Positions 20,513 to 62,192 of a stretch of 64,000 bases of DNA are shown here, piece after piece. Both the position numbers and the translations under genes were made by a program. Every line of letters starts with the position of its first letter. The first letter of the stretch is position 1. Origin of the DNA: Bacillota bacterium (GTDB taxonomy: Bacteria; Bacillota; Dethiobacteria; DTU022); contig JAWSUE010000012.1 in NCBI GenBank assembly GCA_033549065.1, positions 5,222 to 69,221 of the forward strand, in the 5' to 3' direction. The notes beneath the pieces are model-generated. The model was not told the DNA's origin. It saw nothing but the letters and a program-made list of their open reading frames with translations, and did no database searches.

Positions 20513-20547
20513 AGAAAAAGCAATATATAGTAGAGTTAAGGTATATT

Positions 20548-20580: not shown

Positions 20581-20624
20581 CCACTCAATAAAAAAAAGAA
20601 TAGTCAGAAAGGAGTGTTTACTTA

Positions 20625-21257: not shown

Positions 21258-21301
21258 TCTAACCGCTCTTAAACCAAGTGGAGAAAGGAGAATTTGGGAA
21301 A

Positions 21302-22756: not shown

Positions 22757-22783
22757 ACCTTCTACATATTGGTGGGATATATC

Positions 22784-24799: not shown

Positions 24800-24863
24800 T
24801 CATAAACAATATTGTAGAAGGAGGTTTGGTTACCGGTACATTTCAAAACCGGTAAAGCGAAAA

Positions 24864-25658: not shown

Positions 25659-25709
25659 CAGGACAGGCTGATTTTCTAGTTTAGTTTTAATTCGCGTGTT
25701 TAGGAAAGG

Positions 25710-29140: not shown

Positions 29141-29175
29141 AACCGGTTGGATCTACTCAACCGGTTTATTTTTTT
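29141..29175. terminator. bidirectional terminator hairpin AACCGGTTG...CAACCGGTT
   Basis: The stem overlaps the stop codon of the minus-strand gene. It is followed by T8 on the plus strand and by an A/T-rich stretch with T5 on the minus strand. Confidence 0.5.
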
Positions 29176-30316: not shown

Positions 30317-30333
30317 GTTGTACCCTTATCAAT

Positions 30334-31768: not shown

Positions 31769-31896
31769 AAATACACCTCCGCAAGAATAACTTGATAATG
31801 ATCAACACATTGTTAATTCCAGACAAATAATTTGGATGTAATGCTCAATATCAAGTTATTTCCAAATCTTAAAAAGGGGACATGCTTCAACTGCAC

Positions 31897-32808: not shown

Positions 32809-32974
32809 GTTTTTTCCTCCTGAATTTGATTTGCTATTACTTTTATTGTAGGACAAGAATTAATTTATATTACCCTTTCACCGGTCTGCAGCGGTTATTT
32901 GTTATACTGCCTCCTTTCCGGGTTGTATATTTTGTAATAAAGGTTGTGAACATGCTCTATCATTCAATGGTCTT

Positions 32975-39058: not shown

Positions 39059-39099
39059 GCTATAACTCTTTTCGGTTGGTTGAAGGAGAATTATCTATA

Positions 39100-40656: not shown

Positions 40657-40667
40657 GGTGATCTAAT

Positions 40668-44301: not shown

Positions 44302-46017
44302 ATTAAAAAAGTAGTAAATAACACAGCAGTATACGAAGAAGATTGGTGGAAGAGGGCAGTTTTTTACCAGATCTATCCCCGCAGTTTCCAGGATAGCAAC
44401 AACGATGGTATTGGAGATCTTCAGGGGATTATCTCCAGGCTTGATTATCTGAATGACGGTACTCCGAATTCACTGGGTATCGATGCTATATGGTTCAGCC
44501 CTTTTTTTACCAGCCCTGATTTTGATTACGGTTACGATGTTGCCGATTACCGTGACATTGATCCGCGATATGGGACCCTGCAGGATTTCGACCTGCTTCT
44601 TTATGAGGCACATAGAAGAGGGATCAGAATTTTGCTGGACCTGGTTGTCAACCACACATCACATCTACACCCCTGGTTTGTAGAATCCCGTTCTTCCAGG
44701 AGCAATCCAAAAAGGCAATGGTATATATGGAAAGATGGCCGAGGCCCCGGTAACAGGGTGCCGAATAACTGGCGTAACAATTTTTTCGGACCGGCCTGGA
44801 CCTTCGATGAAGAAACAGGACAATATTACCTGCATTCATTTTTAAAGGAACAGCCAGATCTGAACTGGGATAACCCGGAGGTTCGCGAAGCTATAGCCGA
44901 TGTTATAAGATTTTGGCTTGACCGTGGTGTTGACGGATTCAGGCTTGATGTGCCCCATATCTATTGCAAGGACAAGTATTTCCGGAACAATCCTCCATTT
45001 TATGCCTGCGAGCGCTCTAAAACGAGTGTTCCTTTGAGTGATCGTCTTTTGATGTCAAACATCATGAAACTGTTGTCGCTGCCGGAACTGCAAAAACGAA
45101 AATATAACCAACACCAACCGGAGACTCACGAGGTGCTCAAAGGCTTTCGAAGTGTATTTAATTCATATTCCGGTATAACCAGTGTGGGTGAGGTAATCAC
45201 TGATGATCCCAGTCAATTGGTTTCGTATTACGGAAGAGGTAACGATGAACTGCATATGAATTTTTATTTTGAATTACTGCACTGCCGGTGGACAGCCGGG
45301 GCATTTAAAAGGTGTGTTGATCGATGGGAAGCTTCACTTCCGCCAGAGGCCTGGCCCGCCTATGCTTTCAGCAATCATGATGTAATTAGGACAGCCAGCC
45401 GTTATGATCGGGGTGGAAAGGGCTGGAAAAGGGCCCGCATGCTGGTGTTGATGCTGATGACCTTCAGGGGCTCGCCATTTATTTATTACGGTGAAGAAAT
45501 TGCGATGAAAGAAGTGAGACTGCCCAGAGAAGATTTACGTGATCCCATCGGAGTCAGATGGTTTCCCTTTCATCGCGGGCGGGATGGCTGCCGGACACCA
45601 ATGCTGTGGGATAATGGACCGAACGGTGGTTTTTCCAAGCAACAGCCATGGCTGCCGGTCAGTCCGGAAGCCGACACATTAAATGTATCTGCCCAGGAAA
45701 GCGATCCTGATTCGCATCTTAACTTCTTCAAACAGTTAATCTGGCTTCGTAAAGGCTTGCCTGCCCTGTTGGGTGGCAGATATGAAAGTTTAACAGAAGG
45801 TATTCCCGGGGAAATATATGCCTATCTTCGAAAACATGAAAAGCAAAACCTACTGATAGCGCTTAACTTTTCTTCCAGAAAGCAGGAATTTGTTCTGTCG
45901 AAGAGTAAGGGAATAAAACAACTGATTATTTCCACTGATCCTGATCGCAAAGAAATCGGCCGGGCCGGCTCGATAACTCTCGAACCGGAAGAAGGTATAT
46001 TAGTCGACCTTAATTAA
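44302..46017 (+). CDS. glycoside hydrolase family 13 alpha-glucosidase (oligo-1,6-glucosidase / trehalose-6-phosphate hydrolase-like); apparent non-canonical ATT start
   Basis: The frame is open from 44287 and encodes the GH13 N-terminus (WWKRAVFYQIYPRSF, region I DLVVNH). There is no ATG/GTG/TTG before 44632; an ATT at 44302 sits 8 nt after AAAGGAGG. Confidence 0.6.
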   Translation: MKKVVNNTAVYEEDWWKRAVFYQIYPRSFQDSNNDGIGDLQGIISRLDYLNDGTPNSLGIDAIWFSPFFTSPDFDYGYDVADYRDIDPRYGTLQDFDLLLYEAHRRGIRILLDLVVNHTSHLHPWFVESRSSRSNPKRQWYIWKDGRGPGNRVPNNWRNNFFGPAWTFDEETGQYYLHSFLKEQPDLNWDNPEVREAIADVIRFWLDRGVDGFRLDVPHIYCKDKYFRNNPPFYACERSKTSVPLSDRLLMSNIMKLLSLPELQKRKYNQHQPETHEVLKGFRSVFNSYSGITSVGEVITDDPSQLVSYYGRGNDELHMNFYFELLHCRWTAGAFKRCVDRWEASLPPEAWPAYAFSNHDVIRTASRYDRGGKGWKRARMLVLMLMTFRGSPFIYYGEEIAMKEVRLPREDLRDPIGVRWFPFHRGRDGCRTPMLWDNGPNGGFSKQQPWLPVSPEADTLNVSAQESDPDSHLNFFKQLIWLRKGLPALLGGRYESLTEGIPGEIYAYLRKHEKQNLLIALNFSSRKQEFVLSKSKGIKQLIISTDPDRKEIGRAGSITLEPEEGILVDLN

Positions 46018-46926: not shown

Positions 46927-47241
46927 ATGTTCACTGTAACGGATAAAGCAAAAGAAAAATTTGTTGAGTTTTTAAACGAAGAAGGCAAGAAAGATGCCTA
47001 TGTTCGCATCTATATAAGCGGTGTTGGCTGAGGCGGACCTAGGTACGGCCTGACTCTGGATGAGTCGGTTCAGGAAGAAAAAGATCTAGTTCATGAAACA
47101 GAAGAAGTTAAGTTTGTTTTTGAAAACGGAATTTCTGATTTCCTCAGTGGGAAATTGATCGACTATCATGATGGTCCACGAGGCGGTTTTTCTGTTACTG
47201 ATGGCAGCGGGCAAAGCGGATGTGGAGATTGCAGCTGCTAA
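46927..47241 (+). CDS. HesB/IscA-like selenoprotein (in-frame TGA at 47029..47031 read as selenocysteine)
   Basis: GGAGG is followed 8 nt later by an ATG. The product MFTVTDKAKEKFVEFLNEEGKKDAYVRIYISGVG-U-GGPRYGL...GQSGCGDCSC carries Sec at the position of the first conserved Cys of IscA/HesB proteins. A GACUC-UGGAU-GAGUC hairpin lies about 20 nt after the UGA. A selC gene is present in the window. Confidence 0.7.
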
Positions 47242-47267: not shown

Positions 47268-47390
47268 ATGGCTACTGCAGTTGGCGAGGTATATAAGTGT
47301 CAGGTATGCACCAATGTCGTAAAGGTTCTGGAAGATGGGGTAGGTACCCTGGTTTGTTGTGATGAGCCGATGGAATTGGTAGAAGAGTAG
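47268..47390 (+). CDS. desulforedoxin (Fe(Cys)4 rubredoxin-like protein)
   Basis: A 40-aa ORF (MATAVGEVYKCQVCTNVVKVLEDGVGTLVCCDEPMELVEE) that is near-colinear with the classical desulforedoxin CxxC...CC motif. A GGAGG SD is present. Confidence 0.75.
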   Translation: MATAVGEVYKCQVCTNVVKVLEDGVGTLVCCDEPMELVEE

Positions 47391-47518: not shown

Positions 47519-48787
47519 TTATGCTTCCAGCAATTTTTTCATATTAAGTTTTTCGCTGTATTCCGAGTCCATTTCTAGGAGGCCTCCCGGAAATTCGTAT
47601 TTGGCCATCCTTGCTATATATGGATCCGGATCGAAGGATTCAGGCCCGTGGACCCCTTTCAAATCCCAAATTCCTTTGGCAGCCAACTCGAGCATGATTA
47701 CCGGACTGAATGCAGTCTGTGCTACAACAGAATTTGTCCTGTATTTCTTGTAACACTCCTGGTTGTCTGCTACCTGGTAAAGGTAAACTGATCTTCTCAT
47801 CCCGTCTTTTTTCCCGGTTACCCAGGTCCCGGCACAACCTTTACCGATCATTTTTGGTGCAAGTTCAAGGGGGTTCGGAACAACTTTAACCAGAAAATCC
47901 CGTGGAGTTATTTCACTTTCTCCAACCTTGATTTTCCTGGTGGCGCTATCCATTCCGCAGTCCTGAAGATTGAGCAGCAATGCCCTCATTTCACGGGGAA
48001 CCCCGAACTTAAAGGTAACCCTGTTACAGTCGATCTCTCTGGGGATGAGGATAACCTCTTCATGCTCGATATTGATCACTTCAACGTCGCCTATTCCACC
48101 CGGAAAAGAGAAGATCTCCGGTTCAGAAAAAACTTCAGTACAGTACCAGCCGCGATCCTTTTCCCATATAACAGGCGGATTGAGACACTCTTCTATAGTA
48201 GTCCAGATTGAAAAACCGAAAGCTACGCCCTCATACCCGGGTATTTCGTAATTGTCTCCATCCCGAACGTTTATTTCATCGATGGTATCAAAAAGATGCT
48301 TGGCTGCAAACTTGGCATAAACATTGGCCATACCGGGTTCAACTCCTGAACCGACTATAGCCATCAAACCTGCTTTTTGCCAATCTTTATGCCTGGCAAA
48401 CTGGTAGTCACCCAACTTGACGTTGGTCAACTCGTAAGGTTTTTCCGGATGCTTTTTAGATAAAGTCATTGCACAGTCTATATAGCCTACATTGCATTCC
48501 AGGCATGTGTCGAAAATATTTTCGTTGAAAACCGGCTCAACCGCATTCATCACAAAATCAATCTGATGTTTTTTAATCAGCTCTTTGATACTTTCTGCAT
48601 TACCCGCATCAACCTTTTCGGCGACAAACCGGTAGTCGCTACACATGGCGGCAACCTCTTCAGCTCTGGGCAGTTTATAATCAGCCAGGACAACTTTTTC
48701 TGCCCAGGAGCCTTCTTCTCCGGCCCGTTTGATGATCATTGCTGTCGATTGCCCCACACCTCCCGAGCCGATAATAAGTAATTTCAA
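47519..48787 (-). CDS. saccharopine dehydrogenase family NAD(P)-binding protein (carboxy(nor)spermidine dehydrogenase-like)
   Basis: An N-terminal Rossmann fold (KLLIIGSGGVGQ) and a saccharopine-DH C-terminal domain. I prefer the TTG at 48787, 6 nt after GGAGGG. Confidence 0.7.
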   Translation of the reverse strand: MKLLIIGSGGVGQSTAMIIKRAGEEGSWAEKVVLADYKLPRAEEVAAMCSDYRFVAEKVDAGNAESIKELIKKHQIDFVMNAVEPVFNENIFDTCLECNVGYIDCAMTLSKKHPEKPYELTNVKLGDYQFARHKDWQKAGLMAIVGSGVEPGMANVYAKFAAKHLFDTIDEINVRDGDNYEIPGYEGVAFGFSIWTTIEECLNPPVIWEKDRGWYCTEVFSEPEIFSFPGGIGDVEVINIEHEEVILIPREIDCNRVTFKFGVPREMRALLLNLQDCGMDSATRKIKVGESEITPRDFLVKVVPNPLELAPKMIGKGCAGTWVTGKKDGMRRSVYLYQVADNQECYKKYRTNSVVAQTAFSPVIMLELAAKGIWDLKGVHGPESFDPDPYIARMAKYEFPGGLLEMDSEYSEKLNMKKLLEA

Positions 48788-48820
48788 GGGTATCCCTCCG
48801 CAGAGTTTATTTATAAACAA

Positions 48821-48843
48821 AGGCGGCCATTAAACGGCCGCCT
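48821..48843 (-). terminator. intrinsic terminator after the symporter gene
   Basis: In the minus sense, AGGCGGCC-GUUUAAU-GGCCGCCU is followed by UUGUUUAUAAAUAAA. Confidence 0.5.
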
Positions 48844-48858
48844 GTTTACACCATGTAT

Positions 48859-50466
48859 TTAAGAAGACTTGGACCAGAAGAATTTTGGCATATTACTCAT
48901 GTCTTCGCCGTCAAGCGTCCTCATCGGTTTAGGAGGATATTTCTTCTGGGTTGCCAGTGAAACAATTATTAAAGTCAGGAAGCTGATGATAAAAGCCGGA
49001 ACCAGGGCAATGAAGATTGCATCATCCATAGCCCATGACATATATACCTCGCCCTCAACCAAAACATCCATATTTGCTTCCATGGTTGCAGGCAGGACTG
49101 CCAGGTAGACAATGATCCAGGAAACAAGGCCGGTAAAGAATGAACTTACGGCGCCTGCTACATTCGCTTTCTTCCAGAAGTAACCGATTATATAGGCTCC
49201 GGAAACGGTAGCCAGCTGGATGCCACCGGAAAGGACGATCAACTTGTAGACTGTTTCAAAGTAAAGGGCAATCGCCATAGCAAAAAGAGTTACAATTGGA
49301 ATGCAAATCCTGACTACTTTCAGTACCTGTTGTGGAGTGGCTTCAGGTTTTAAATTGCGATAAATATTATGCCCGATCAGGGTAGAAATAATCAGCGAAT
49401 TGTCTCCGGAAGTGCTGACAATGGCCGCTGCCAGGGATACGATAAAGAGTACGCCAGCCCAGGGAGGCAGGAACGTATAGGCTGCCCAGGGCAAAACATT
49501 TTCAGCTTCAGATACAGGCACCCCTTCGAGCATCCCTGTCGTAAATACGGCAATTCCGATCAAAACCGGTATCATACCGATAGTCAGGTAAAGCACCCCG
49601 CTGGTCAGAAAACCGGCAACAGCTGTCTTCTCGTTCTTAGCTGCCAACGCTCGCTGCATCAATACCTGGCTCGGAACATCGCCCAGAGATAGTGAAGTCC
49701 ACGCCGAAATATATAGCAGGACGGCAAACAGGCCGGTATACCAGAGGTACCCCTCCTCGCCACTTTCTATCTTCATCGACCAGGTTGGCAGTTCAGCCCA
49801 GTTTTCAGCGGTTTGGAATAGCTCGCCAAGTCCGCCAACCTCACCCAAAGCAGCAGGCAGGAGAACCAGAAGACCAACAATGATCAGAACAAACCCGATG
49901 GCATCAACCCGGGACAGGGCCCAGAGGCCACCGAAGCTGGTTACTATGATGATGGCCACCGTAGCGATAATTACAGCAGTTTGCATGCTGAACCCGGTGG
50001 TGAGATAAACAATAATTCCTAAAGCCACCAACTGCCCGCCCAGCCAGGCCAGGGCAGAGAGAATCTGAATGATAGTATATAGTAAGCCGCTGAACTTGCT
50101 ATAACGATGGTTAAAGAAATCTGTAACTGTTGTATACTTGGCTTTACGCATTCTGTAAGCGAAGAAAATACCGATAATGACCATGCAAAGGGCTGGTGCC
50201 CAGGGGTCGAAAATAACCCCCTGCATTCCGAAGAGAAATGCATAGCCGGCAGCTCCCATCATTGCCCCGGCACAGATCCATGTGGCAATAATCGAAGGGA
50301 CCATGAATATAAAGCTAAGCTGGCGTCCGGCAACGGTAAGGTCGTCTGCTTCATGAACTTTGCGACTGTAGAAAACGCCGAGCCCGATAATAACAACCAT
50401 GTAGATTCCGAGGAATAGAAGGATCCAATTAGCTGTTGAAAATACTTGCAGGATACTATCTTCCAT
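48859..50466 (-). CDS. sodium:solute symporter (SSS) family transporter
   Basis: About 13 TM helices and SSS-family similarity (PutP/PanF-like). Confidence 0.85.
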   Translation of the reverse strand: MEDSILQVFSTANWILLFLGIYMVVIIGLGVFYSRKVHEADDLTVAGRQLSFIFMVPSIIATWICAGAMMGAAGYAFLFGMQGVIFDPWAPALCMVIIGIFFAYRMRKAKYTTVTDFFNHRYSKFSGLLYTIIQILSALAWLGGQLVALGIIVYLTTGFSMQTAVIIATVAIIIVTSFGGLWALSRVDAIGFVLIIVGLLVLLPAALGEVGGLGELFQTAENWAELPTWSMKIESGEEGYLWYTGLFAVLLYISAWTSLSLGDVPSQVLMQRALAAKNEKTAVAGFLTSGVLYLTIGMIPVLIGIAVFTTGMLEGVPVSEAENVLPWAAYTFLPPWAGVLFIVSLAAAIVSTSGDNSLIISTLIGHNIYRNLKPEATPQQVLKVVRICIPIVTLFAMAIALYFETVYKLIVLSGGIQLATVSGAYIIGYFWKKANVAGAVSSFFTGLVSWIIVYLAVLPATMEANMDVLVEGEVYMSWAMDDAIFIALVPAFIISFLTLIIVSLATQKKYPPKPMRTLDGEDMSNMPKFFWSKSS

Positions 50467-50520
50467 ACGTTGTAAATCCTCCTTATTAATTAATAATATG
50501 CTAAATTACTTAGGTATCTA

Positions 50521-50763
50521 TTAACCTCCGGCAACACGGGGATTAAAGACGATAAGCTCACCTCCCTTAAGGGATTCGTCCAGGCTAGATTTACTTCCAT
50601 TTACCTGAATAAAAGAAACTGAGGAGGTGGGAATACCCAGTTGTTCGGCAATTTCACGTACTGTTAGTATCGTTCTATCGAATTCTAGTTCCAGTGTGTC
50701 GGAATCATTCCCGTATTTTTTCAGCGGGCCTTTTAACTGGAGAAAAACTTTCATTTTCTGCAC
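50521..50763 (-). CDS. MoaD/ThiS family sulfur-carrier protein
   Basis: 80 aa with a beta-grasp fold and a C-terminal GG. Confidence 0.75.
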   Translation of the reverse strand: MQKMKVFLQLKGPLKKYGNDSDTLELEFDRTILTVREIAEQLGIPTSSVSFIQVNGSKSSLDESLKGGELIVFNPRVAGG

Positions 50764-50791
50764 CTCCTCTTTTGTTGCTTACTTACATTTT

Positions 50792-52546
50792 CTAAAGGTT
50801 CAATTCTGTTTTCTTGGCTTTGCTTATCCGGCCATTGTCTTCCCAACCGCGCAGTTTGTAATATTCAGAGAGCATTTTTTCGTATTCCTCTCGCGGCAGA
50901 AGTTTGCCTTCAGTTGCACCGGTGGTCAGTTCTTCTTTATATATGCGCTCGGGCAGGTAATCATCTTTACGCACGAAGCCTTCCCTTTCGTTGAAAAGGC
51001 GGGCTAGGTTATTAATCCGCTCTCCGATTTTGATCAGATCATCGGCAGAAATTTCCCTGTTCAGAAGTGAACTCAGAATTTCAGCCATTCGCTCGGTGCT
51101 GAGAGCCCAAAAATCACAGAATATAGCTGAGAATTTAACTGAATTAATTTCTTGCAGATCAATAACCAGTTTAGCCTTACCTTCGCTGGTAAAAGGATCA
51201 ATATCTCCGAATGCTTCCACAGCAGCCGGCCAGGCTCTCATGTGACAGGCTCCGCGGTCGGCAGTGCCGTAAGCCAGCCCCATTGACCATGATCCTCTCG
51301 GCTCGTAACCCGGTATTTCAAGGCCTTTTACCTGCATGGCAAAGTCAGAGCCTCCATACTTTTCTGCCATGGCCCTGACTCCCATGGCCAGATCAGCGCC
51401 AACGCCTTCTTTACGGGCAATTAATCCGGGCATTTCCAAATATCTTTCCACCTGGCCGAACCTGATGTCAAAGTCATGGATGCTCTTTTCAGTAAGTTCC
51501 ATGGCAAAGGCAACAGCGTTACCGGCCGATATTGTATCTAAACAGTGATCATCGCAAAGACGATTAAATTCCATTACTGCTTCCAGATCACCTATTCCGC
51601 AGTTGGATCCACAAAGCGCAAGTGTTTCATATTCCGGTCCCTCAACCCGGGTGTTACCTTTAACGACATAGTTGCTGCAGGCCAACGGGCAGGCGAAACA
51701 GGCTTTTTTGGCTTTAAGGAAACTTTTAACTGCTTCGGAATTTACACCTTCATAATCGTCAAAAGTACCTTCCTGAAAGTTGCGGGTAGGAAGGATCCCG
51801 GTTGACTGGCTTAAATCGACAATCATGGGGGTCCCGTCACTGTAAGCCCACATGTTATCATCGGTCATCGTATCTTCACGCTTTATTTTATTCATGGCAG
51901 CAGAAAATTTACGGGTATTGGGTATTTTAATCCCCTTGGTACCCCTGACAGAAATTGCTTTCAGGTTTTTACTGCCCATAACGGCGCCAATACCTCCGCG
52001 ACCGGCCTGCCGGTATAGTTCAGAACTGATGCAGGCCATGGGGATAAGATTTTCTCCGGCCTGTCCGATTGCCATGGTAACTACATCTCCCAGAGTATCG
52101 GCAATTATATGCTCTGTTTCATGAGCGCCTTTACCCCAGATCCCTGCGGCACTGCGCAGTTCAACTTTATCGTCTTCAATATAGAGATAAACCGGTATTT
52201 TAGATTTACCTTCAATGATGACAGCATCATAACCGGAGTATTTTATTTCGGCAGATATGTGACCGCCAATAGAACAGTCTAGAATTGTGCCTGTGGCCGG
52301 TGATTTAGCGGCGATAGCGAGCTTCCCCGAGTTGGGTATAATCGTACCCGTCATCGGTCCGGTCATCAAAATCAGTTTATTTTCTTCAGATAGAGGATCA
52401 ATACCCGGTTCCAGTTCTTCGTAGAGATATTTGATACTCAGCCCTTTGCCGCCAAGATAATCATTTGCCCACTGCTCATTCAACGATTCGGTTGTAGCTT
52501 TTCCGGTTGACAGATTAACTCTTAATACTTTTCCGGTATAGGCCAT
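50792..52546 (-). CDS. aldehyde:ferredoxin oxidoreductase (tungsten-containing AOR family)
   Basis: Full-length AOR family protein with the N-terminal AFOR_N domain (MAYTGKVLRVNLSTGK...) and the C-terminal domain. Confidence 0.9.
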   Translation of the reverse strand: MAYTGKVLRVNLSTGKATTESLNEQWANDYLGGKGLSIKYLYEELEPGIDPLSEENKLILMTGPMTGTIIPNSGKLAIAAKSPATGTILDCSIGGHISAEIKYSGYDAVIIEGKSKIPVYLYIEDDKVELRSAAGIWGKGAHETEHIIADTLGDVVTMAIGQAGENLIPMACISSELYRQAGRGGIGAVMGSKNLKAISVRGTKGIKIPNTRKFSAAMNKIKREDTMTDDNMWAYSDGTPMIVDLSQSTGILPTRNFQEGTFDDYEGVNSEAVKSFLKAKKACFACPLACSNYVVKGNTRVEGPEYETLALCGSNCGIGDLEAVMEFNRLCDDHCLDTISAGNAVAFAMELTEKSIHDFDIRFGQVERYLEMPGLIARKEGVGADLAMGVRAMAEKYGGSDFAMQVKGLEIPGYEPRGSWSMGLAYGTADRGACHMRAWPAAVEAFGDIDPFTSEGKAKLVIDLQEINSVKFSAIFCDFWALSTERMAEILSSLLNREISADDLIKIGERINNLARLFNEREGFVRKDDYLPERIYKEELTTGATEGKLLPREEYEKMLSEYYKLRGWEDNGRISKAKKTELNL

Positions 52547-52938
52547 TATTTATTCACCTCCTCGAAGGTTAGCGCCTCTGTTGGACACCAGTTGGCACAA
52601 CTACGGCACTGGACACAAACCCCTATCCCCTTCGGTTTCTTGACAATTACCTGCGGAGGGCAGATATCGACACATAGGCCGCAGTCAGTACAGAGTTCTT
52701 CAACAAACGACAGACGGTCGTTTTTGAGAATTATCGCATCTACCGGACAGGCTTCTACACAGCTTAGACAAAGGTCACAGGTTTGTCCCTTTACCACCAG
52801 ACCATCACGGTTGTAGCGGGAAGTAATCTTCAGCCGAGCTAAACGGGGATTAAATTCCTCTTCATTTTGTGCGCTGCAGGCTAAATGACACAGCTTGCAG
52901 CCGATACATTTTTCTGCATGAAAAAACAGCGCTTTCAA
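52546..52938 (-). CDS. 4Fe-4S poly-ferredoxin
   Basis: Four CxxCxxCxxxCP-type cluster motifs. It overlaps the AOR start by 1 nt. Confidence 0.85.
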   Translation of the reverse strand: MKALFFHAEKCIGCKLCHLACSAQNEEEFNPRLARLKITSRYNRDGLVVKGQTCDLCLSCVEACPVDAIILKNDRLSFVEELCTDCGLCVDICPPQVIVKKPKGIGVCVQCRSCANWCPTEALTFEEVNK

Positions 52939-52962
52939 GCAATACCCACTCCTTTCATCAAA

Positions 52963-54303
52963 TTAATTATCAGATACTTTTTTTGTAACCTTTTCAATCA
53001 TCTCCACCACCTGATCGATCTCCTCGATACTGATCGTCAGGGCCGGTTCGATCCTGATCGTTGATGCATTATTCAGCGTTCCGGCAACCAGTATCCCGTT
53101 TTCGAAAAGGCCACGGGCTACTTTGTAACCGGTTAGATCATCAGTGAATTCCAGACCGATCAACAGCCCTTTTCCACGGGCCTCTTTTAGAGCTGGATAT
53201 TTTCGGGCTATACGCTGTAGCTTGGGTAAGATATAACTGCCCTTTTCAGCAGCCTGCTCGACGATTCCTTCATCAATGATCACCTGTATTCCCGCTATTG
53301 CAGCCGCACAGGCAAGGGGGTTGCCGCCGAAAGTTGTTGAATGCAGGAACGGATTGGGCATCATTTGCTGCCAGATTTCTGAGGTTGAAACATATGCCCC
53401 TATTGGCATAACTCCACCACCGAAAGATTTTCCCAGGCACAAAATGTCGGGGACTATACCATAATGTTCAATGGCAAACATCATTCCCGTCCGGCCCATG
53501 CCCGTTTGAACTTCGTCGACAATTAACAAAACACCAAACTCGTCACAAATTTCCCGAACGTGAGCGAAATATTCTTCAGGGGGGATAACAACTCCTCCTT
53601 CGCCCTGGATCGGTTCAAGAATTACGGCGGCAATTTCCTGGCCGACAGCAAAGGAGCTGGATATAGTTTTCTTCAGGATGTCGGCATCACCAAAGGGGAT
53701 ATGCTGAAAATAGGGCAGGAGGGGCAAATAAGGTTTACGGAAAACCGATTTACCTGCGGCGCTGAGAGAACCCAGTGATTTGCCGTGATATCCTCCAACA
53801 GCAGCGATAACCCCTGGTCTGCCTGTATGCAGCCTGGCCAGCTTTAAAGCGCCCTCAATTGATTCTGTGCCGCTGTTGGTAAAAAATGAATACTGGAGAT
53901 CTCCCGGGGTAATCAAGGCAACGATTTTTGCCAGCATTGCCCGCAGTGGATCGAGCAGTTCCTGGCTGTGCAGCGCCTGTCGCTCCAGTTGATTTTTGAC
54001 CGCTTCCACCACTTTTGGATGGCGATGCCCAACATTGTATACTCCATAACCACCAAGGCAATCAACATATCTTCTTCCGTTAATATCGGTAAATCCGGTA
54101 CCGCTGTCAGACCATTCCACCGCCTTGTAATCGGTTGAAACCGATTTGCGGTATTCCAAAAAACCGGGATTACAGTGTTCTTTAAAACCCTGCAGCGTCT
54201 CGTTGGTGATCCAGTTAATATCATCATCTGTTAAATTTTTTTTTGAAATAAAGTCGAGAACTTTTTCACTATAGCTAAGTGCGTTGATCAGTTTTTCACT
54301 CAA
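52963..54303 (-). CDS. class III (omega-amine) PLP aminotransferase (putrescine/GABA/acetylornithine aminotransferase family)
   Basis: The GGYGVYNVGH, DEVQTGMGRTG and LCLGKSFGGG (Schiff-base Lys) motifs. TTG start with an AAGGAAGG SD. Confidence 0.85.
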   Translation of the reverse strand: MSEKLINALSYSEKVLDFISKKNLTDDDINWITNETLQGFKEHCNPGFLEYRKSVSTDYKAVEWSDSGTGFTDINGRRYVDCLGGYGVYNVGHRHPKVVEAVKNQLERQALHSQELLDPLRAMLAKIVALITPGDLQYSFFTNSGTESIEGALKLARLHTGRPGVIAAVGGYHGKSLGSLSAAGKSVFRKPYLPLLPYFQHIPFGDADILKKTISSSFAVGQEIAAVILEPIQGEGGVVIPPEEYFAHVREICDEFGVLLIVDEVQTGMGRTGMMFAIEHYGIVPDILCLGKSFGGGVMPIGAYVSTSEIWQQMMPNPFLHSTTFGGNPLACAAAIAGIQVIIDEGIVEQAAEKGSYILPKLQRIARKYPALKEARGKGLLIGLEFTDDLTGYKVARGLFENGILVAGTLNNASTIRIEPALTISIEEIDQVVEMIEKVTKKVSDN

Positions 54304-54344
54304 ACCAAATTTCCTTCCTTTTGCAGTCGGATATTAGTAATTCA

Positions 54345-54360
54345 TGCAATATTAGTGCCA
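54345..54360 (-). promoter_or_regulatory. sigma-54 (-24/-12) promoter, TGGCAC-TAATA-TTGCA in the minus sense
   Basis: A perfect consensus about 40 nt upstream of the aminotransferase start. Confidence 0.65.
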
Positions 54361-54505
54361 AATATGGCTAACAATGATCTTCTGTTATGGTTCCATTTGA
54401 AAACCAAAAAACCGCTGTATTGTCTTATTTTAAAGCTTTTTTTAAATTAATATTGTTAATCCAGGTATCTCAATATTAATAAATTCTAATTTGGCTGTCA
54501 TATTC

Positions 54506-54521
54506 TTCTCGATAATGAGAA
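54506..54521. promoter_or_regulatory. putative enhancer palindrome TTCTC-GATAAT-GAGAA
   Basis: An inverted repeat about 150 bp upstream of the minus-strand sigma-54 promoter, between the divergent activator gene and the operon. It resembles the TTCTC..GAGAA sites at 18.6 kb. Confidence 0.35.
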
Positions 54522-54621
54522 ATTATTTGAGACCTGGCTAAATTAACGGCAGGGTATCGGAGCGAGGTGACGAATAACTCTTAAAATGCTAAATCTAATT
54601 ATTTTAACGGAGACTTGCTGA

Positions 54622-56421
54622 ATGACCGGATTGATGCGTATACAACCGATGGTTCAGGACCTTGCGGAAGCGATAGCAGCAGCGCTTTCAATTGAGGTTG
54701 AAATAGTGGATGAAGAACTGACCGTAGTTGCCGGCAGCAGCTGCTACAAAGAAAAAATAGGGCAAAAAGAAGAACTGGGCCTTCTGGATAGTGATTTTTT
54801 ATATGCCAGAACATTACGCAGCGGGAAGTCGTTTGTGGTGAATGACCCGATCAGTGATCCCGGATACGATCCATCTTCACTTGAGGGGACTACTCCTGAG
54901 ATGGCCGAAATTTGTTCACCCATCCTTTTGGATCATAACGTTATCGGGGTTATAGGCTTGGTTGCTTTTGATAAAATGCAGAAGGAGAAGCTGATTTCCA
55001 AAACAGGAGCGGTCTTATCTTTTCTGCAGCATTTAAGCCGGTTTCTGGCAGCCAAGGTATCAGAAAGCGAAGCAGTTGATCGCCTGACCAGGGTTTCAAT
55101 TGAGCTTTCTACAATACTTGAAACTATTCATGAAGGAGCTCTGGCTATTGATGCCAATGGTGTGGTTACACATTCCAATACAACTGCAGAAAAGTTATTG
55201 AGACTAAACCGGAATGAAATTCTTGGCAAAAACCTGGGTGATTTCTGGGTAGATACTCCGGCGCTGGAAGTTTTGAAAACAGGTAAGGAATATATAGAAA
55301 AAGAAGAATTTTACCAGGCCAAAGGTCGTCGAAGTATGCACTTTATAGTTTCAGTGCGTCCCATCCCGGGACCTGACAGGCCTGACGGCGCTGTCGTCTC
55401 ATTTCGTGATATATCCGAAGCTCGCAGGCTGATCTATGATCTTAGCGCAACGGCTATGGATTATACTTTTGAAGATATAATCGGCGAAAGCAAATCGATC
55501 CTGCAGGTTAAAGAACAGGCTCTGAGAGTTGCCGCCGGAAATTCAACGGTCCTTATTACCGGAGAGAGCGGGACAGGTAAAGAAATATTTGCCCGGGCTA
55601 TACATTCGGCCAGTACCAGAAAAGAAGGTCCCTTTATCAGCGTCAACTGCGGAGCAATTCCGGAAACACTTCTGGAGAGTGAACTGTTTGGATACGAGGG
55701 AGGAGCTTTTACCGGGGCAAGAAAAGAGGGTAAGGCAGGCAAATTTGAACTGGCCAACGAAGGGACAATTTTCCTTGATGAAATCGGTGAAATGCCACTG
55801 CACCTGCAGGTTAAACTTCTGCATGTCCTGCAAAACAGGGAAGTTGAAAGGGTTGGTGGTTCAAAGAAAATCCCTGTTGATGTAAGGATAATTGCCGCCT
55901 CCAACCGTGATTTGGAAAATATGATGCACGAAGGAAATTTTCGTAAAGATCTCTATTTTCGCCTGAGTGTAATTCCCCTGCATATCCCCCCCTTGAAAGA
56001 ACGCCGAGAGGATATTCCGGCCCTGGTTGAGAGATGTCTCGATAAATATGCTCCCATGCTGAACAAAAAGTTTAATGCAATCGATCCGGACGCCATCAAG
56101 TGTTTGCTGCACTATCACTGGCCGGGAAATGTGCGGGAACTTGAGAATGCTGTGGAGTATGCTGTAAATATGGCTTCTGGAGATACTGTTACGCTGATGA
56201 GTCTGCCGCCCAGAATAAGGGAAACAGAGACTGATAAGATTATGACGGCAGATCTACCTCTGAAAGACCGGGTAAAAGAATATGAAAAAATTATACTGCA
56301 TGAATACCTGCAGAGATATGGCACATCTTTTGAGAGCAAAAATGATATTGCCGAAAAACTTGATATAAGCCGCGCAACTTTATATCGCAAGCTGGCCGAA
56401 CTCGGTCTCTCAAACAAATAA
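54622..56421 (+). CDS. sigma-54-dependent transcriptional activator (sensor domain, PAS, AAA+, HTH)
   Basis: GESGTGKE, the GAFTGA motif and a C-terminal Fis-type HTH. Its N-terminal sensor domain is paralogous to that of the activator at 16788..18581. Confidence 0.9.
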
Positions 56422-56438: not shown

Positions 56439-57347
56439 ATGTCTCCATTGGAATGGAACTGGTACATTGAATATACCACTGATTATCATGGTTACCTTTA
56501 TGCGATTAAACAATATCTGTTCAACGGTGTAACCCCTTTCCAGAAAGTTGACATTATCGAAACTTATACTTATGGTAAGATGCTAATACTTGATGGTAAA
56601 ACTCAGTCAGCTGAGTTTGATGAGCACATTTACCATGAAGCTTTAGTTCATCCGGCAGCGGTCATGCATGGGAATCCGAAAAAGGTTATGGTCATGGGTG
56701 GGGGAGAAGGTGCAATAATCAGGGAAATTTGCCGTTACAAAAATATTGATGAGATAGTAATGGTTGACATTGACCGCACAGTAGTTGAAATGTGCCGTGA
56801 ACATCTCCCGGAGTGGCATCAGGGTAGTTTTGATGACAGCCGGGTCGAACTGCTGCATATGGATGCAAGGAAATATCTCGAAGAAACTGATCGAAAGTTC
56901 GATATTATCTACAGTGACTTGACGGAGCCTGCTGAAGAAGGTCCATCCAAACTCTTGTTCACCCGTGAATTTTATAAAATGGTTAAAACCAGGCTCAATC
57001 CCGGTGGGATACTGGTTGTTCAGTCAGGAGGATTCAGTACTGATTATCTGAGTATTCACGGGGCGATCAGAAATACTCTCAACCTCAATTTTCCTTATGT
57101 TCGATCGTACCATACCTTTATTCCTTCGTTTGACTGCTCCTGGGGCTACATGATTGCCTGTGAAAATCGAACCAATTTTGATCTTAAACGGGAAGAGGTC
57201 GACAGGCGCTTGGATGGGATTTCCGACCAACTGAAATTTTATGATGGCGAAACCCACGAAGGGATGTTTTGTGTCCCCAAAGATATACGCCTTGCTCTTG
57301 ATAAAGACCGGGCAATCATCGAGGACGAAAAACCGCTATCCTTCTGA
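56439..57347 (+). CDS. speE: polyamine aminopropyltransferase (spermidine synthase)
   Basis: A spermidine synthase tetramerisation N-terminal region and the MGGGEGAIIRE and IYSDLTEP motifs. Confidence 0.85.
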   Translation: MSPLEWNWYIEYTTDYHGYLYAIKQYLFNGVTPFQKVDIIETYTYGKMLILDGKTQSAEFDEHIYHEALVHPAAVMHGNPKKVMVMGGGEGAIIREICRYKNIDEIVMVDIDRTVVEMCREHLPEWHQGSFDDSRVELLHMDARKYLEETDRKFDIIYSDLTEPAEEGPSKLLFTREFYKMVKTRLNPGGILVVQSGGFSTDYLSIHGAIRNTLNLNFPYVRSYHTFIPSFDCSWGYMIACENRTNFDLKREEVDRRLDGISDQLKFYDGETHEGMFCVPKDIRLALDKDRAIIEDEKPLSF

Positions 57348-58385: not shown

Positions 58386-59636
58386 CTACTCCTTTTCTGA
58401 GGGGCGATGTGGCTTTTCGTCAAGGCCAAATGTATTATGAATAGCCCTGACAGCAAGTTCACCATATTTCTCTTCTATAACGCAGGATATTCGATATTCA
58501 GAAGTACTGATCATCTCGATATTGATATTTTCATCAGCCAGCGATTTGAACATTCTGAATGCCACCCCGGGATGGCTTTTAATCCCTATCCCAACAGCTG
58601 AAACCTTTACTATGTTATTATCAGCCAGCATTTCCAGAGCCCCGATTTCTTCGGTCACTATACTGACCAGTTTGCTTGCATGATCCAACTCGGAGGTTGG
58701 CACTGTGAAGGTGAAGTCGGCGAAACCGTCGATACTGGCGTTCTGAATAATCATATCGACATTAATTGCCGCGTCGGCCAGGGGAGAGAGGATTCTGTAA
58801 GCAATTCCCGGACGGTCGGGAACCCTGATTAGTGAGATTTTCGATACATTTTTTTCCAGGGTCACACCCTTGATTATTAAGTTTTCCATTTCATCCTCCT
58901 CGTTAACAATCCAGGTTTCCCTGTCTCCCCCAAACGATGATTTAACCACCAGGGGCACCTGGTACTTTTGAGCCAGTTCAACTGAACGGGCATGCAGTAC
59001 TTTTGCTCCAAGCCCAGCCAATTCAAGCATTTCCTGGTATGACACCTTTTCAAGATGGCGGGCATGGGGGCATATACCTGGGTCGGCAGTATACACTCCA
59101 TCAACATCAGTATATATCTCGCAACAGTCAGCCTTCAGGGCAGCTGCAAGAGCAACTGCGGTTGTATCAGATCCGCCACGACCGAGAGTTGTAATACTTC
59201 CGTCTTCGGCAACCCCCTGAAAACCGGTTATAACCGGTATTATATCTTCCTGAATTGTTTTTTCAAGAACTTCTGTCTGCAGATCAAGAATACGAGCCCG
59301 GTTATGAATATTGTCGGTTACAAGAGGAAGCTGCAAACCCAGGAAAGACCTTGCAGTCTGCCCCAGGCTTACCAAAGTCATTGCCAGCAAGGCGGCGCAA
59401 GCCTGTTCTCCGGTAGCAAGCAGTGCGTCCAGTTCTCGTGCAGAAGGGTTTGTCGTAATCTCACCAGCCAATTCAAGTAAATGATCAGTTTGATCTCCCA
59501 TGGCGGAAACTACGACAGCTACCCGGTTTCCTTCCTGTCTGGCCTTGGCAACCTTAACTGCTACCCTGCGGATATGGTCGATGGATGCAACCGAGGTGCC
59601 ACCATATTTCTGAATAATCAAGGCCAAAATGTTCAC
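58386..59636 (-). CDS. lysC: aspartate kinase
   Basis: The amino-acid kinase N-terminus (KYGGTSV) and two C-terminal ACT domains. GTG start; the exact start is uncertain. Confidence 0.85.
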   Translation of the reverse strand: MNILALIIQKYGGTSVASIDHIRRVAVKVAKARQEGNRVAVVVSAMGDQTDHLLELAGEITTNPSARELDALLATGEQACAALLAMTLVSLGQTARSFLGLQLPLVTDNIHNRARILDLQTEVLEKTIQEDIIPVITGFQGVAEDGSITTLGRGGSDTTAVALAAALKADCCEIYTDVDGVYTADPGICPHARHLEKVSYQEMLELAGLGAKVLHARSVELAQKYQVPLVVKSSFGGDRETWIVNEEDEMENLIIKGVTLEKNVSKISLIRVPDRPGIAYRILSPLADAAINVDMIIQNASIDGFADFTFTVPTSELDHASKLVSIVTEEIGALEMLADNNIVKVSAVGIGIKSHPGVAFRMFKSLADENINIEMISTSEYRISCVIEEKYGELAVRAIHNTFGLDEKPHRPSEKE

Positions 59637-59725: not shown

Positions 59726-60856
59726 TTACCTGAGAATTTCAAGAAAGGCCTGAATTCTTGTCTTAATCGCTTCAGAAGGCTCAAAGCTATAATTGTCGTC
59801 AATCAGAAGCATGGGAAACCCTTCTTTTTTCAGGTAGTCACGCAGGTCCGGGTAATCAAGTTTATGGGGATCGCAAAAAGAGATGCAGTATCCGATAATA
59901 CCATCAACCTCATATTCTCTGACCCTTTCAAGAATATAATCAAACCTGTTTACTCCGGGACCGCGATCTGTCCTGGGACACTGAAAATTGATAAAGTAAT
60001 GTTCAGTTAAACTTTCATAGGGATCATCAGTCTGGGGGATGTCTTCTTCCCATGTTCTGAAACCGATACAGGTATCATCTGCGACTACTTTTCCTCCAGA
60101 TTCTTCGATTAACCGGTATAATGAAGAGTCATCCATTATGCTTCCCCAAACCAGTATCCGGGGGAAGATTTCGCTGCCCTGTTTACGTTCAGAAGCAGTA
60201 TCCAGGGTTTTTTTGAGTAATGCTCTGAACTCACTGGCCGGCAGCGCTCCTCCCGTAATCAGCAGGTCGATCATTTCACTGCCTTCGATAAGAGGAATTT
60301 TTTCTTTTCGAAGAGCATAGAGTTTTCTTACCAGGGAACGGTTTTCATTATAGAGATTAATGGAATCCTTTAATGCCGATTCTTCAACATTTTTACCTGT
60401 AAATTTTTCCAGGCTTTCCCTGAAAAATCCCAGTTCACGCTTGTAAAAACGCCGTGCTTGCGGGCTGACCTGATGTGGAACATTAAACATGTATGAATAA
60501 GCCAGGGGGTGATAATGAGTCCAGATTCCGTAAAGCCGCTGGACCATATCACAGCTGTGAGAGATGATCAAACCATCCAAAAAATCATAATGCCCCCGGA
60601 CTGCCCTGGAGAGGACACTGCGGACATAGGTACATCCGTAGGGCTCTACATAAGAATCTGCAGCTGAAGTATCTTCTCCCGGAAAACTGGTAATCCTGTA
60701 AGGGATAGCGCCGGCAGCGCTGATCAGTTCCGGGGGAGCAAAACAGCAGAGGTAACCGATAACCGGTTTGTTTGTTTCAGCTTTTATCCGGCGAATCATT
60801 TCTTCATTTTGAGCAGTTATACTGTTATTTTTCCGACCAATAAGTTTGGCATTCAT
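59726..60856 (-). CDS. 2-hydroxyacyl-CoA dehydratase family protein (HgdB/BcrC/BadD-like subunit)
   Basis: Family-wide similarity including conserved Cys ligand positions. Confidence 0.7.
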   Translation of the reverse strand: MNAKLIGRKNNSITAQNEEMIRRIKAETNKPVIGYLCCFAPPELISAAGAIPYRITSFPGEDTSAADSYVEPYGCTYVRSVLSRAVRGHYDFLDGLIISHSCDMVQRLYGIWTHYHPLAYSYMFNVPHQVSPQARRFYKRELGFFRESLEKFTGKNVEESALKDSINLYNENRSLVRKLYALRKEKIPLIEGSEMIDLLITGGALPASEFRALLKKTLDTASERKQGSEIFPRILVWGSIMDDSSLYRLIEESGGKVVADDTCIGFRTWEEDIPQTDDPYESLTEHYFINFQCPRTDRGPGVNRFDYILERVREYEVDGIIGYCISFCDPHKLDYPDLRDYLKKEGFPMLLIDDNYSFEPSEAIKTRIQAFLEILR

Positions 60857-60857
60857 C

Positions 60858-62192
60858 CTAGTTACCTCCCTTTTTTGTTCGATCTACCGTTTCGAGAAAT
60901 GCATGCAGCCGTGTTTTGATCTGGGCATCTGACCATAGCCGGGGATCAGCCATATCGCTCTCAAATATCAATGATGGGATACCGATTTCTGCAAGACGGT
61001 TTTTCGTGTGAACTTCTCCGAATGATACAGCCCGGCAGGAGCGTGTAAGATGCATAATTGCCCCGCTAAGGCTGAAATCTTTGACCAACTCTTCCAGTAG
61101 CGAGCTGCCGACAAATCCGCCGAAGACAGCTGGGTTGCAGAGCTCGGGCATGGCTTCCGCACCATAGTCATGCATCTTCACCGCCCTTTGCCAGGTTCGT
61201 TTGACTATTGCCTCGAGCGGGTCGGAGAGGTCGACTTCAAAATGATCTCCCACGTTATAGGTTGACTCATAAGCAAATACGGCTCCCAGCGACTCCAGGT
61301 AATTGAAAATACCCATGTTGAACCATGGCGGCAGGCCAAACCAGATAAATCGATATTTTTCATCTTCAACAACGCCTATGCCTCGTTCAACACGATCCTT
61401 TACTTCTTCGTACATTTCCCGGTAGAAATCTACTGCCTCCTGGTCTCCCACCAGGTACATTTGGGGAATAATTGCATGGAAATAGTCTGTTGATCCCATC
61501 GGAGAGGGGATTGCTTTACGTAATGCCAGGGTATCCCGCCAGTAAGCCAACGCTTTATGAGAGAGGGCCATTATTTCTCTCAGAAGTGCCAGATCAAGTT
61601 TCTTGCCCGTATGCTTTTCCAGAAATTCAATCTGTCCCGCCAGATCTTCGCGGAGAAGAGTCAGGTAATGCTCCTCGATCCGCGGGTCTCTGGGGTTTAT
61701 ATCGTAGGGAGGGGCCAGGGGATCACTGCTGTAAACGGGAACGTCAAAGAAGCGGGTTGCAATCGACTGAAACCATTTCCAGCGCGGTTCACAGATAAAA
61801 CCGGAACCGAGCAGCATAGCCGGTGTTCCCATACCCCCGGGAAGGGGAGATTCGGGAGGGGCTTCACCGGTTTCCTTGAAAAGTTTACAATAACCCATCG
61901 TGTTGGTTACGTAGGAACAGAGTTCCGGTGAGTAGCCATCGCCCTCGGCAACTTCAATAAATTTGGGGGCCACCAACCTGCTGGCACACATTGTCCCGAA
62001 GTTTTCAGGCCATTCAAATAGAAGATCAAATGCTTTCAATAACTCGGGAGGGACTCCCACCATGCACCAGGCCAAAGGTTCATTGCTGAAACGTCGTTCA
62101 ATCATCCGCATGAAGAATCTGGGCAGCATCTCTTTCATTTTCCGGGTTGTTTCCAGGTGGCGTTTAGCCCGGCTCATTTCGCTTTGGGTCAT
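60858..62192 (-). CDS. 2-hydroxyacyl-CoA dehydratase family protein (HgdA/BcrB/BadE-like subunit)
   Basis: Family similarity. It is adjacent to its partner subunit with a 1-nt intergenic gap. Confidence 0.7.
   Translation of the reverse strand: MTQSEMSRAKRHLETTRKMKEMLPRFFMRMIERRFSNEPLAWCMVGVPPELLKAFDLLFEWPENFGTMCASRLVAPKFIEVAEGDGYSPELCSYVTNTMGYCKLFKETGEAPPESPLPGGMGTPAMLLGSGFICEPRWKWFQSIATRFFDVPVYSSDPLAPPYDINPRDPRIEEHYLTLLREDLAGQIEFLEKHTGKKLDLALLREIMALSHKALAYWRDTLALRKAIPSPMGSTDYFHAIIPQMYLVGDQEAVDFYREMYEEVKDRVERGIGVVEDEKYRFIWFGLPPWFNMGIFNYLESLGAVFAYESTYNVGDHFEVDLSDPLEAIVKRTWQRAVKMHDYGAEAMPELCNPAVFGGFVGSSLLEELVKDFSLSGAIMHLTRSCRAVSFGEVHTKNRLAEIGIPSLIFESDMADPRLWSDAQIKTRLHAFLETVDRTKKGGN

Follow-up and report, generated by a model that had tools for sequence, protein, structure and literature searches.

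The decay of biomass yields abundant polyamines and diamines, which are rich in nitrogen, and the characterized bacterial routes for their degradation depend, to our knowledge, on NAD-dependent aldehyde dehydrogenases or oxygen-dependent oxidases. In Escherichia coli, PatA/YgjG and PatD/YdcW act in succession and are followed by GabT and GabD. Here we analyzed a 64,000-nucleotide stretch of DNA (hereafter the window; contig JAWSUE010000012.1 of assembly GCA_033549065.1) from a Bacillota bacterium of the Dethiobacteria lineage, in which six same-direction open reading frames (ORFs) span 54303 to 47519 on the minus strand. The first of them likewise encodes a PatA-type enzyme, 56% identical to that of E. 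coli, and the predicted intermediate and product, 4-aminobutanal and 4-aminobutyrate (GABA), would be the same. In contrast to E. coli, an unrelated AorAB-type pterin enzyme of the aldehyde:ferredoxin oxidoreductase (AOR) family, presumably tungsten-dependent, takes the place of the NAD-dependent gamma-aminobutyraldehyde dehydrogenase, electrons would leave at ferredoxin potential, a dedicated GAF-PAS activator is present and the host is an anaerobic member of the Bacillota. Our analysis suggests, with a probability of about 60%, that this operon directs the sigma-54/enhancer-binding-protein-controlled catabolism of an imported amine via an aldehyde to an acid; that putrescine in particular is the substrate is less probable.

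Other described systems resemble parts of this locus. In Bacillus subtilis, the rocDEF operon under RocR/sigma-L likewise combines a PAS-containing sigma-54 activator with a class-III omega-aminotransferase and an amino-acid permease, but it serves ornithine and arginine, contains other downstream enzymes and has no AOR. The Aromatoleum aromaticum operon consists of aorABC and two MoaD-like genes, encoding AorD and AorE, and shares with our locus a four-cluster AorA, an AorB (with a tungsten cofactor there and presumably here) and MoaD-like genes in one operon; its AOR oxidizes a broad range of aldehydes after amino-group removal in phenylalanine degradation, likewise after a transamination (PMC6365974). 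In contrast, our locus has no AorC (FAD/NAD subunit) but has its own aminotransferase, transporter and dehydrogenase. In Clostridium, sigma-54 promoters and the dedicated activator AorR drive aor-moaD operons for acid reduction and alcohol formation (PMC6615313), which are devoid of aminotransferase, transporter and dehydrogenase; the upstream activating sequence (UAS) of AorR, TGT-N10-12-ACA, differs from the TCTC-N6-GAGA found here, and AorR-type regulation was rejected for our operon on this ground. The last gene is related to carboxy(nor)spermidine dehydrogenase (CASDH; PMC10413350), with which its product shares fold families, but its neighbours are genes for an AOR and a transporter, downstream of a sigma-54 promoter. 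Full-text searches of a literature library returned no description of an AOR coupled to the catabolism of putrescine or another omega-amine or to a saccharopine-dehydrogenase-family enzyme, nor any account of the coupling seen here. A preliminary description of this DNA, made from the sequence alone, had called such a route non-standard.

That description had listed six minus-strand genes behind a perfect sigma-54 promoter, and all of them were located in the proposed order, as were the divergent regulatory elements:

54345-54360, minus strand: sigma-54 promoter TGGCACTAATATTGCA, with TGGCAC at -24 and TTGCA at -12, 42 nt 5' of the aminotransferase start codon
52963-54303, minus strand: PatA/YgjG-type class-III (omega) aminotransferase, 446 aa, PF00202
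52546-52938, minus strand: AorA-like electron-transfer subunit, 130 aa, four CxxCxxCxxxC motifs in the translation
50792-52546, minus strand: AorB-like catalytic subunit of the AOR family, 584 aa, AFOR_N and AFOR_C
50521-50763, minus strand: MoaD/ThiS-like beta-grasp protein, 80-aa ORF, PF14451, C-terminal Gly-Gly
48859-50466, minus strand: transporter of the sodium:solute symporter family (SSF), 535 aa, PF00474 and TIGR00813
48821-48843, minus strand: terminator-like hairpin, 10-bp stem with seven GC pairs and a T-rich tail
47519-48787, minus strand: CASDH-like oxidoreductase of the saccharopine dehydrogenase family, 422 aa, PF03435 and PF16653
54506-54521, either strand: palindrome TTCTCGATAATGAGAA (TTCTC-N6-GAGAA), candidate activator-binding site
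54622-56421, plus strand: sigma-54 enhancer-binding protein, GAF-PAS-AAA+(GAFTGA)-HTH, PF00158, divergent from the operon
56439-57347, plus strand: polyamine aminopropyltransferase (SpeE family), PF01564 and PF17284, 18 nt downstream of the activator gene

Wherever calculated, the intergenic gaps within the operon are 24-54 nt, and the ATG of the AOR gene overlaps the stop codon of the preceding 130-aa ORF by 1 nt. For the last gene, the TTG at 48787 is a likelier start than 48820; it has the ribosome-binding site GGAGGG, gives a product of 422 aa and agrees with the NCBI call. The GC-rich hairpin at 48821-48843 separates the symporter gene from this last gene, which corrects the preliminary description. 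The hairpin could be a partial terminator, an attenuator inside the operon or an mRNA-stabilizing element; at the equivalent position in one relative (locus L003, ~13668-13700) there is a different, non-homologous GC-rich hairpin with a T run.

The aminotransferase matched PF00202 with E = 7e-107 and passed the NCBIfam putrescine aminotransferase model NF008570 (693.3 bits, cut-off 612), whereas the argD model scored 360 against a cut-off of 410, and the ArgD, ornithine aminotransferase and GABA aminotransferase models all scored well below their cut-offs. Its best solved relative is E. coli YgjG/PatA (4uox, 548 bits), and the next family reached 302 bits. The lysine in DILCLGKSFGGG, aligned with that in DILCLAKALGGG of the E. 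coli enzyme, is conserved, and we take it to be the lysine that binds pyridoxal phosphate. Judged by these scores, the enzyme is, at family level, of PatA/YgjG type and not of ArgD type, and an ArgD or other biosynthetic aminotransferase is ruled out at the same level. This narrows the class-III omega-aminotransferase of the preliminary description, which had named an acetylornithine-type enzyme as the outcome that would speak against an amine pathway. We also considered an ectoine/diaminobutyrate route, in which a DoeD-like aminotransferase and the AOR would lead to aspartate, since CASDH enzymes use aspartate semialdehyde. This route was rejected, because diaminobutyrate aminotransferase was absent from the top matches and no DoeA/DoeB-type genes were present among the called genes of the cluster.

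The 130-aa protein had been described as a ferredoxin with four [4Fe-4S] clusters. Its four motifs were found, but the alignment of the protein with the A. aromaticum AOR Fe-S subunit (8c0z_C) spans its entire length, and it also matches the Fe-S partners of the solved tungsten oxidoreductases 9mqx and WOR5; for these reasons we read it as an AorA-type enzyme subunit rather than a free ferredoxin. The AOR call was borne out by both AFOR domains and by scores of 447-450 bits to Pyrococcus furiosus AOR (1aor) and 9mqx_D and 419 bits to A. aromaticum AorB (8c0z_A). The enzyme keeps the CxxCxxxC...C cluster ligands (CfaCplaC and the cysteine in ...rgaCH...) and the EGPEYE motif, and the aligned cysteines are presumably the [4Fe-4S] ligands known from the P. 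furiosus enzyme. The beta-grasp protein matched PF14451 with 31.6 bits (cut-off 23) and ends in ...RVAGG, consistent with the MoaD/ThiS protein described before; its likely ATG start at 50754 gives 77 aa. Its orthologues also match PF02597 (ThiS), and the gene directly follows the AOR gene in most loci and lies nearby in the others. No ORF for an AorC-type FAD subunit was found in or next to the operon, indicating an AorAB-only arrangement and making NAD+ an unlikely electron acceptor.

Elsewhere in the window, 18 kb from the AOR gene, genes for a TupA-like binding protein and a TupB-like permease (30334-32856) lie with those for an ABC ATPase and a MOT1-family transporter in a minus-strand block at 29153-32856. 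Their scores are below the curated cut-offs; the block is a probable tungstate/molybdate uptake locus, compatible with tungstate supply.

The sigma-54 promoter at 54345-54360 is an exact consensus match. The pattern TGGCAC-N5-TTGCW occurs twice in the window against 0.06 expected. The other match (TGGCAC-N5-TTGCA; 59586-59601, minus strand) lies inside an aspartate kinase ORF, where it encodes the GGTSVA motif, and was discounted as a promoter and taken to be a coding coincidence. The palindrome between operon and activator is also present as described; it precedes the promoter by ~150 bp and the activator start by 100 bp, and its 16-nt pattern has two matches against 0.09 expected. Of 34 related loci, 25 have a sigma-54 consensus ahead of the first operon gene, and 22 have TCTC-N6-GAGA in the upstream region of the operon, mostly ~100-170 nt 5' of the promoter, which makes the palindrome a candidate enhancer site, predicted to bind the activator. 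The activator carries the GAFTGA motif, shares 38% identity along its whole length with a second activator in the window (16788-18581), as the paralogy claimed earlier would imply, and has PrdR as its best NCBIfam match (466 bits, cut-off 795). In the tblastn table of 36 related loci, an activator divergent from the operon is almost always present. Its orthologues share 75-83% identity with the window protein in most close relatives and 65-69% in loci that have diverged further; the figure is 55% for Natronincola and Anaerovirgula and 50-51% for Desulfurispora and Desulfallas. No rpoN was found among the annotated ORFs of the window.

The second activator has an operon of its own. At 16788-27143 (plus strand), the activator gene is followed by a sigma-54-like site, TGGCATGACTATTGCT, at 18760 and by genes for a BCCT transporter, a B12-binding corrinoid protein, two MttB-family methyltransferases, a hydantoinase-like protein and a pterin-binding methyltransferase. 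This is probably a sigma-54-controlled system for the demethylation of quaternary amines of the betaine type, and sigma-54 thus seems to control at least two systems for the catabolism of nitrogen compounds in this organism. A third MttB-family homologue lies apart from that operon at 8532-9998 (plus strand; 429 bits against the trimethylamine methyltransferase cut-off of 525).

To compare gene orders, we combined the tblastn table with ten further gene-context look-ups. The closest relatives of the AOR (66-85% identity) come from Dethiobacteria and "Syntrophomonadaceae" metagenome-assembled genomes, several of whose isolate labels look like soda-lake sediment and deep-subsurface samples. Beyond ~66% identity, the AOR scan of genome contigs returned only unrelated AORs at 35-42% (chance peptide patterns), and loci L037-L088 were left out. 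Across the 36 loci, AorA-AorB form an invariant core and MoaD is nearly so. The slot directly upstream of AorA holds a PatA-type enzyme of 71-80% identity in 12 loci, a diverged PatA-like enzyme of 41-56% identity in seven and a PRK07046-type transaminase in some others (for example L012); about half of the close relatives have a substitute for the aminotransferase or none at all. Where the slot is empty, the sigma-54 promoter stands directly upstream of AorA. The symporter and CASDH-like genes are usually present, although the latter may be replaced by a 31% identical paralogue and the transporter by another SSF member or a DctPQM TRAP system. The symporter itself matched PF00474 and TIGR00813 but no specific equivalog, in line with the general Na+/solute symporter reported before; its orthologues at the same position are 73-81% identical in most relatives and 56-57% in Natronincola and Anaerovirgula.

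The pairing recurs in more distant lineages. In Desulfurispora thermophila (L091), a PatA-type aminotransferase (62% identity, 740 bits to NF008570) is followed by AorA, AorB, a ThiS/MoaD protein and a GabP-like permease, with a 50% identical activator and a sigma-54 promoter. The genes of Desulfallas sp. Bu1-1 (L109) are arranged in the same way, with an arginase-family gene and a glutamate dehydrogenase in addition. A metagenome contig (L110) carries a permease, a PatA-type aminotransferase, AorA and AorB in this order. In these three loci, MoaD and a permease accompany the pair; the aminotransferases are 60-62% and AorA-AorB 61-64% identical to those of the window, and sigma-54 consensus sites precede cluster genes in Desulfallas and L110. 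Natronincola ferrireducens and Anaerovirgula multivorans show a rearranged order, namely activator, CASDH-like gene, AorA, AorB, MoaD, SSF symporter, agmatinase and SpeE, with components 49-61% identical to the window (MoaD lower, 38-41%). Just upstream of the cluster, Anaerovirgula has a PatA-type aminotransferase gene (640 bits to NF008570) with its own sigma-54 promoter and two upstream TCTC-N6-GAGA copies, and Natronincola has a GABA aminotransferase and an aldehyde dehydrogenase, as in the later steps of the E. coli pathway. Agmatinase-family genes are thus co-located with the cluster in Desulfallas, Natronincola and Anaerovirgula. That PatA is kept beside AorAB at ~60% protein identity across separate Bacillota lineages is, at the level of sequence comparison, strong evidence for functional coupling.

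The AOR clade is nevertheless not confined to such settings. Members at 63% identity stand beside an iron-containing alcohol dehydrogenase and a DUF3156 protein in Desulfofundulus and beside an FAD-oxidase and an electron-transfer flavoprotein in Paradesulfitobacterium, suggesting that AorAB-MoaD is a reusable module and not amine-specific. A metagenome scan with the aminotransferase as query gave 17 loci, two of them informative, and added no lineages. Two other aminotransferase-AOR pairs were seen in these genomes. In Desulfofundulus (L005, 15857-21761), a GABA aminotransferase gene adjoins that of a second AOR (37% identity), and genes for a glutamate dehydrogenase and a further GAF-PAS activator lie close by; Desulfallas (L109, 651-5330) has a second aminotransferase and AOR pair with its own permease, the aminotransferase not being family-typed.

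The best solved relatives of the last gene product are the CASDHs 4rl6, 4ina and 8deb (134-160 bits; identity ~30%, an estimate), and it keeps the Glu188 equivalent and the His-Glu-Glu triad that defines CASDH chemistry (PMC10413350). The kinship proposed in the preliminary description therefore holds for the domains and the catalytic triad, but the remaining hallmarks of a CASDH are missing. The protein scored 168 bits against a cut-off of 800 with NF043000 (the NCBIfam CANSDH model), its NFNPE motif reads GFSIW, and Ser144 is replaced by Ala. Bacteroides fragilis CASDH is strictly NADPH-dependent, and its Ser34-Arg35-Thr36 hold the 2'-phosphate of NADP (PMC10413350). The window protein has Asp-Tyr-Lys at the aligned positions, and the Asp is invariant in 10 of 10 aligned cluster-linked homologues. 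No carboxyspermidine decarboxylase was found among the scanned ORFs of the window or in the called genes of the related loci. Given the failed equivalog score, the altered NADPH site and NFNPE motif and the absent decarboxylase partner, a bona fide CASDH for spermidine biosynthesis was rejected. NAD preference in Rossmann folds is classically signalled by an acidic residue at the end of beta-2, and NAD-linked enzymes are often catabolic. Because Asp replaces Ser34 of the NADPH-specific CASDH, the last gene probably encodes an NAD-type dehydrogenase, which would probably perform the same imine chemistry on other substrates with NAD.

In some relatives (L001 698-4937, L003 2308-6246, L010 and L023), an extra cassette without a counterpart in the window lies between SpeE and UbiA; it encodes a second CASDH-like paralogue (30-33% identity), a ~208-aa protein without a Pfam or NCBIfam match and a second SSF transporter (50%). 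It is conceivable, if rather doubtful, that the AOR-linked CASDH-like enzymes are catabolic amine dehydrogenases, which would produce aminoaldehydes for the AOR by oxidative cleavage of polyamines (spermidine, homospermidine or carboxy-polyamines) or by deamination of diamines. If this were true, the CASDH-like enzymes, the AOR and the swappable aminotransferases would together make up an oxygen-independent, ferredoxin-reducing polyamine degradation in anaerobic Bacillota, the first anaerobic route to split the secondary amine of a polyamine, with a family known so far for biosynthesis alone turned to catabolism.

Gene content, family assignments, the promoter and palindrome and the neighbourhood are observed directly, and the last three are conserved; from them we infer a substrate, an oxidative direction, an electron acceptor, the use of tungsten over molybdenum and a role for the CASDH-like enzyme. 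In the proposed pathway, the GAF-PAS activator would sense a small molecule, bind TCTC-N6-GAGA and switch on the sigma-54 promoter, and the SSF protein would import the substrate with Na+. With 2-oxoglutarate as acceptor, the PatA-type enzyme would remove the terminal amino group from a diamine (putrescine or cadaverine being the likeliest), giving an omega-aminoaldehyde such as 4-aminobutanal, which the AorB-like tungsten AOR would oxidize to the omega-amino acid (GABA in the case of putrescine). The electrons would pass through the four AorA-like clusters to a low-potential acceptor of the ferredoxin type, while the MoaD-like protein would serve the maturation of the metal-pterin cofactor. 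The NAD-type CASDH-like enzyme would provide a second, exchangeable entry, in which an aldehyde arises by dehydrogenation of a primary or secondary amine (for example a diamine or polyamine). In relatives, neighbouring genes would extend the route by agmatinase at the input, by GABA aminotransferase and aldehyde dehydrogenase at the output and by glutamate dehydrogenase for recycling 2-oxoglutarate, and these neighbours fit a route from agmatine or putrescine via GABA to succinate. That the aminotransferase slot changes while AorA-AorB-MoaD stays fits a common aldehyde-oxidizing back end, for which the swappable aminotransferases and the CASDH-like dehydrogenases look like alternative aldehyde-generating front ends. 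The sequence of aminotransferase, aldehyde and AOR put forward in the preliminary description is thus supported by the PatA typing, the recurring synteny and the conserved promoter and palindrome.

Several observations weigh against this reading. Transporters of the SSF, TRAP and GabP-like APC types are known chiefly for carrying zwitterions or anions and not polycations or diamines, and AORs are reversible, with a direction that is unreadable from sequence. The aminotransferase scored below the cut-off of TIGR03372, a second PatA model (593.6 versus 658.65 bits), about nine of the ~36 close relatives (for example L003, L015, L018 and L020) have no operon aminotransferase, and no AOR was found within 7 kb of 54% identical PatA homologues on other metagenome contigs. 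On three Clostridiales metagenome contigs (L007, L008 and L009, ~8300-11275 each), 72% identical CASDH-like orthologues stand alone, with no AOR nearby, and lie directly downstream of a gene for a ~512-aa AraC/cupin regulator. Biosynthetic aminopropyltransferase genes are linked to the cluster in two lineages. The transporter types, SSF, DctPQM TRAP in L029 and GabP-like APC permeases in L091 and L109, together with the TIGR03372 score and the separate GABA aminotransferase-AOR pair with glutamate dehydrogenase in Desulfofundulus, would suit the same logic applied to another substrate, an omega-amino acid or carboxylated amine (GABA, beta-alanine, 5-aminovalerate, lysine/ornithine or a carboxy-polyamine), which the aminotransferase would convert to a semialdehyde and the AOR to a dicarboxylate (succinate, malonate, glutarate or aminoadipate). 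We consider such a substrate unlikely, though a serious alternative, as the enzyme shares 56% identity with E. coli PatA and its scores with the GABA, ornithine and diaminobutyrate aminotransferase models are far lower, and as the agmatinase-family genes of three lineages point to putrescine; moreover, soda-lake pH would leave diamines only partly protonated, making their Na+-coupled uptake conceivable.

The reversibility of AORs also allows a biosynthetic direction, in which the AOR and reduced ferredoxin, in H2-rich alkaline habitats, would reduce GABA or beta-alanine to an aminoaldehyde, reverse PatA action or CASDH-like condensation would yield putrescine or a tri-amine, and the adjacent aminopropyltransferase would extend the product. 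AORs reduce non-activated acids (PMC9295118), CASDH-family enzymes are known reductive condensing enzymes (PMC10413350), and the SpeE-family genes linked to the cluster in the two lineages are non-orthologous. However, sigma-54 activators with GAF-PAS sensors mostly govern catabolic operons in Bacillota (PMC6615313), a dedicated uptake transporter is present, the GABA aminotransferase, aldehyde dehydrogenase and glutamate dehydrogenase neighbours in relatives are catabolic, the CASDH-like enzyme has the NAD-type Asp and no NADPH site, no carboxy-polyamine decarboxylase lies nearby, and acid reduction would use protons and so be unfavourable at high pH. Reductive biosynthesis thus appears improbable. 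It is less credible still, and indeed very improbable, that there is no coupling at all and that AorAB-MoaD is a general aldehyde detoxifier or acid reducer with the aminotransferase, symporter and dehydrogenase as passengers. The sigma-54/AorR-controlled aor-moaD operons for alcohol formation in Clostridium (PMC6615313) and the 63% identical AORs in non-amine contexts would be in keeping with such a role, but PatA, AorA and AorB remain adjacent at 60-64% identity across Bacillota lineages behind a single sigma-54 promoter, the genes are tightly packed with overlapping AorA stop and AorB start, and the palindrome is unlike the AorR site. Amine catabolism through an aldehyde to an acid therefore remains our preferred reading.

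If this reading is correct, the AOR swap would retain the electrons of the aldehyde/acid couple at low potential, in reduced ferredoxin that could feed H2 formation or Rnf-type energy conservation, amine degradation would become tungsten-dependent, and the AOR would gain a defined physiological substrate class in mesophilic Bacillota, in which its roles are mostly unclear. The cluster also offers a regulator-operator pair and candidate omega-transaminase/AOR pairs of the kind used for acid-to-amine biocatalysis, and the linked CASDH-like genes may mark a catabolic branch, so far unexplored, of a family of biosynthetic enzymes. As the cluster occurs in several cultured organisms, the hypothesis is directly testable.

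The gene downstream of the activator, described before as a spermidine synthase, encodes an aminopropyltransferase of the SpeE family that passed NF002010 (273 bits, cut-off 260) and is present in many, though not all, relatives; the SpeE at the operon end in Natronincola and Anaerovirgula, next to agmatinase, is only 29% identical to it. A second ABC transporter at 38018-41747 was considered as a polyamine importer, and its PhnS-like and PotA-like ATPase matches were all below the cut-offs. Farther from the operon, two adjacent HGD-D family proteins (59726-62192, minus strand) resemble 2-hydroxyacyl-CoA dehydratase, BzdNO or double-cubane reductase, all below equivalog cut-offs. An alpha-amylase-family ORF at 44453-46017 (plus strand) encodes 461 aa compared with 570-572 aa in relatives, and a 76-aa ORF overlaps its 5' end; it could reflect a frameshift, a pseudogene or a mis-called start.

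Two small plus-strand ORFs lie beyond the end of the operon. The 40-aa ORF at 47268-47390, between the operon end and an ArsR-type regulator, has a desulforedoxin-like look; its position is conserved in relatives, whose equivalent 41-aa genes match Desulfoferrodoxin_N. The ORF at 46927-47241 has 104 codons with an in-frame TGA at 47029-47031 (...YISGVG-TGA-GGPRYGL...). The TGA and the flanking protein sequence are conserved in at least 15 related loci, and gene callers shorten the product to 34 aa. By eye, and with no family scan, the product looks HesB/IscA-like to us, a cysteine presumably being expected at the TGA position, and we regard it as a candidate selenocysteine protein.

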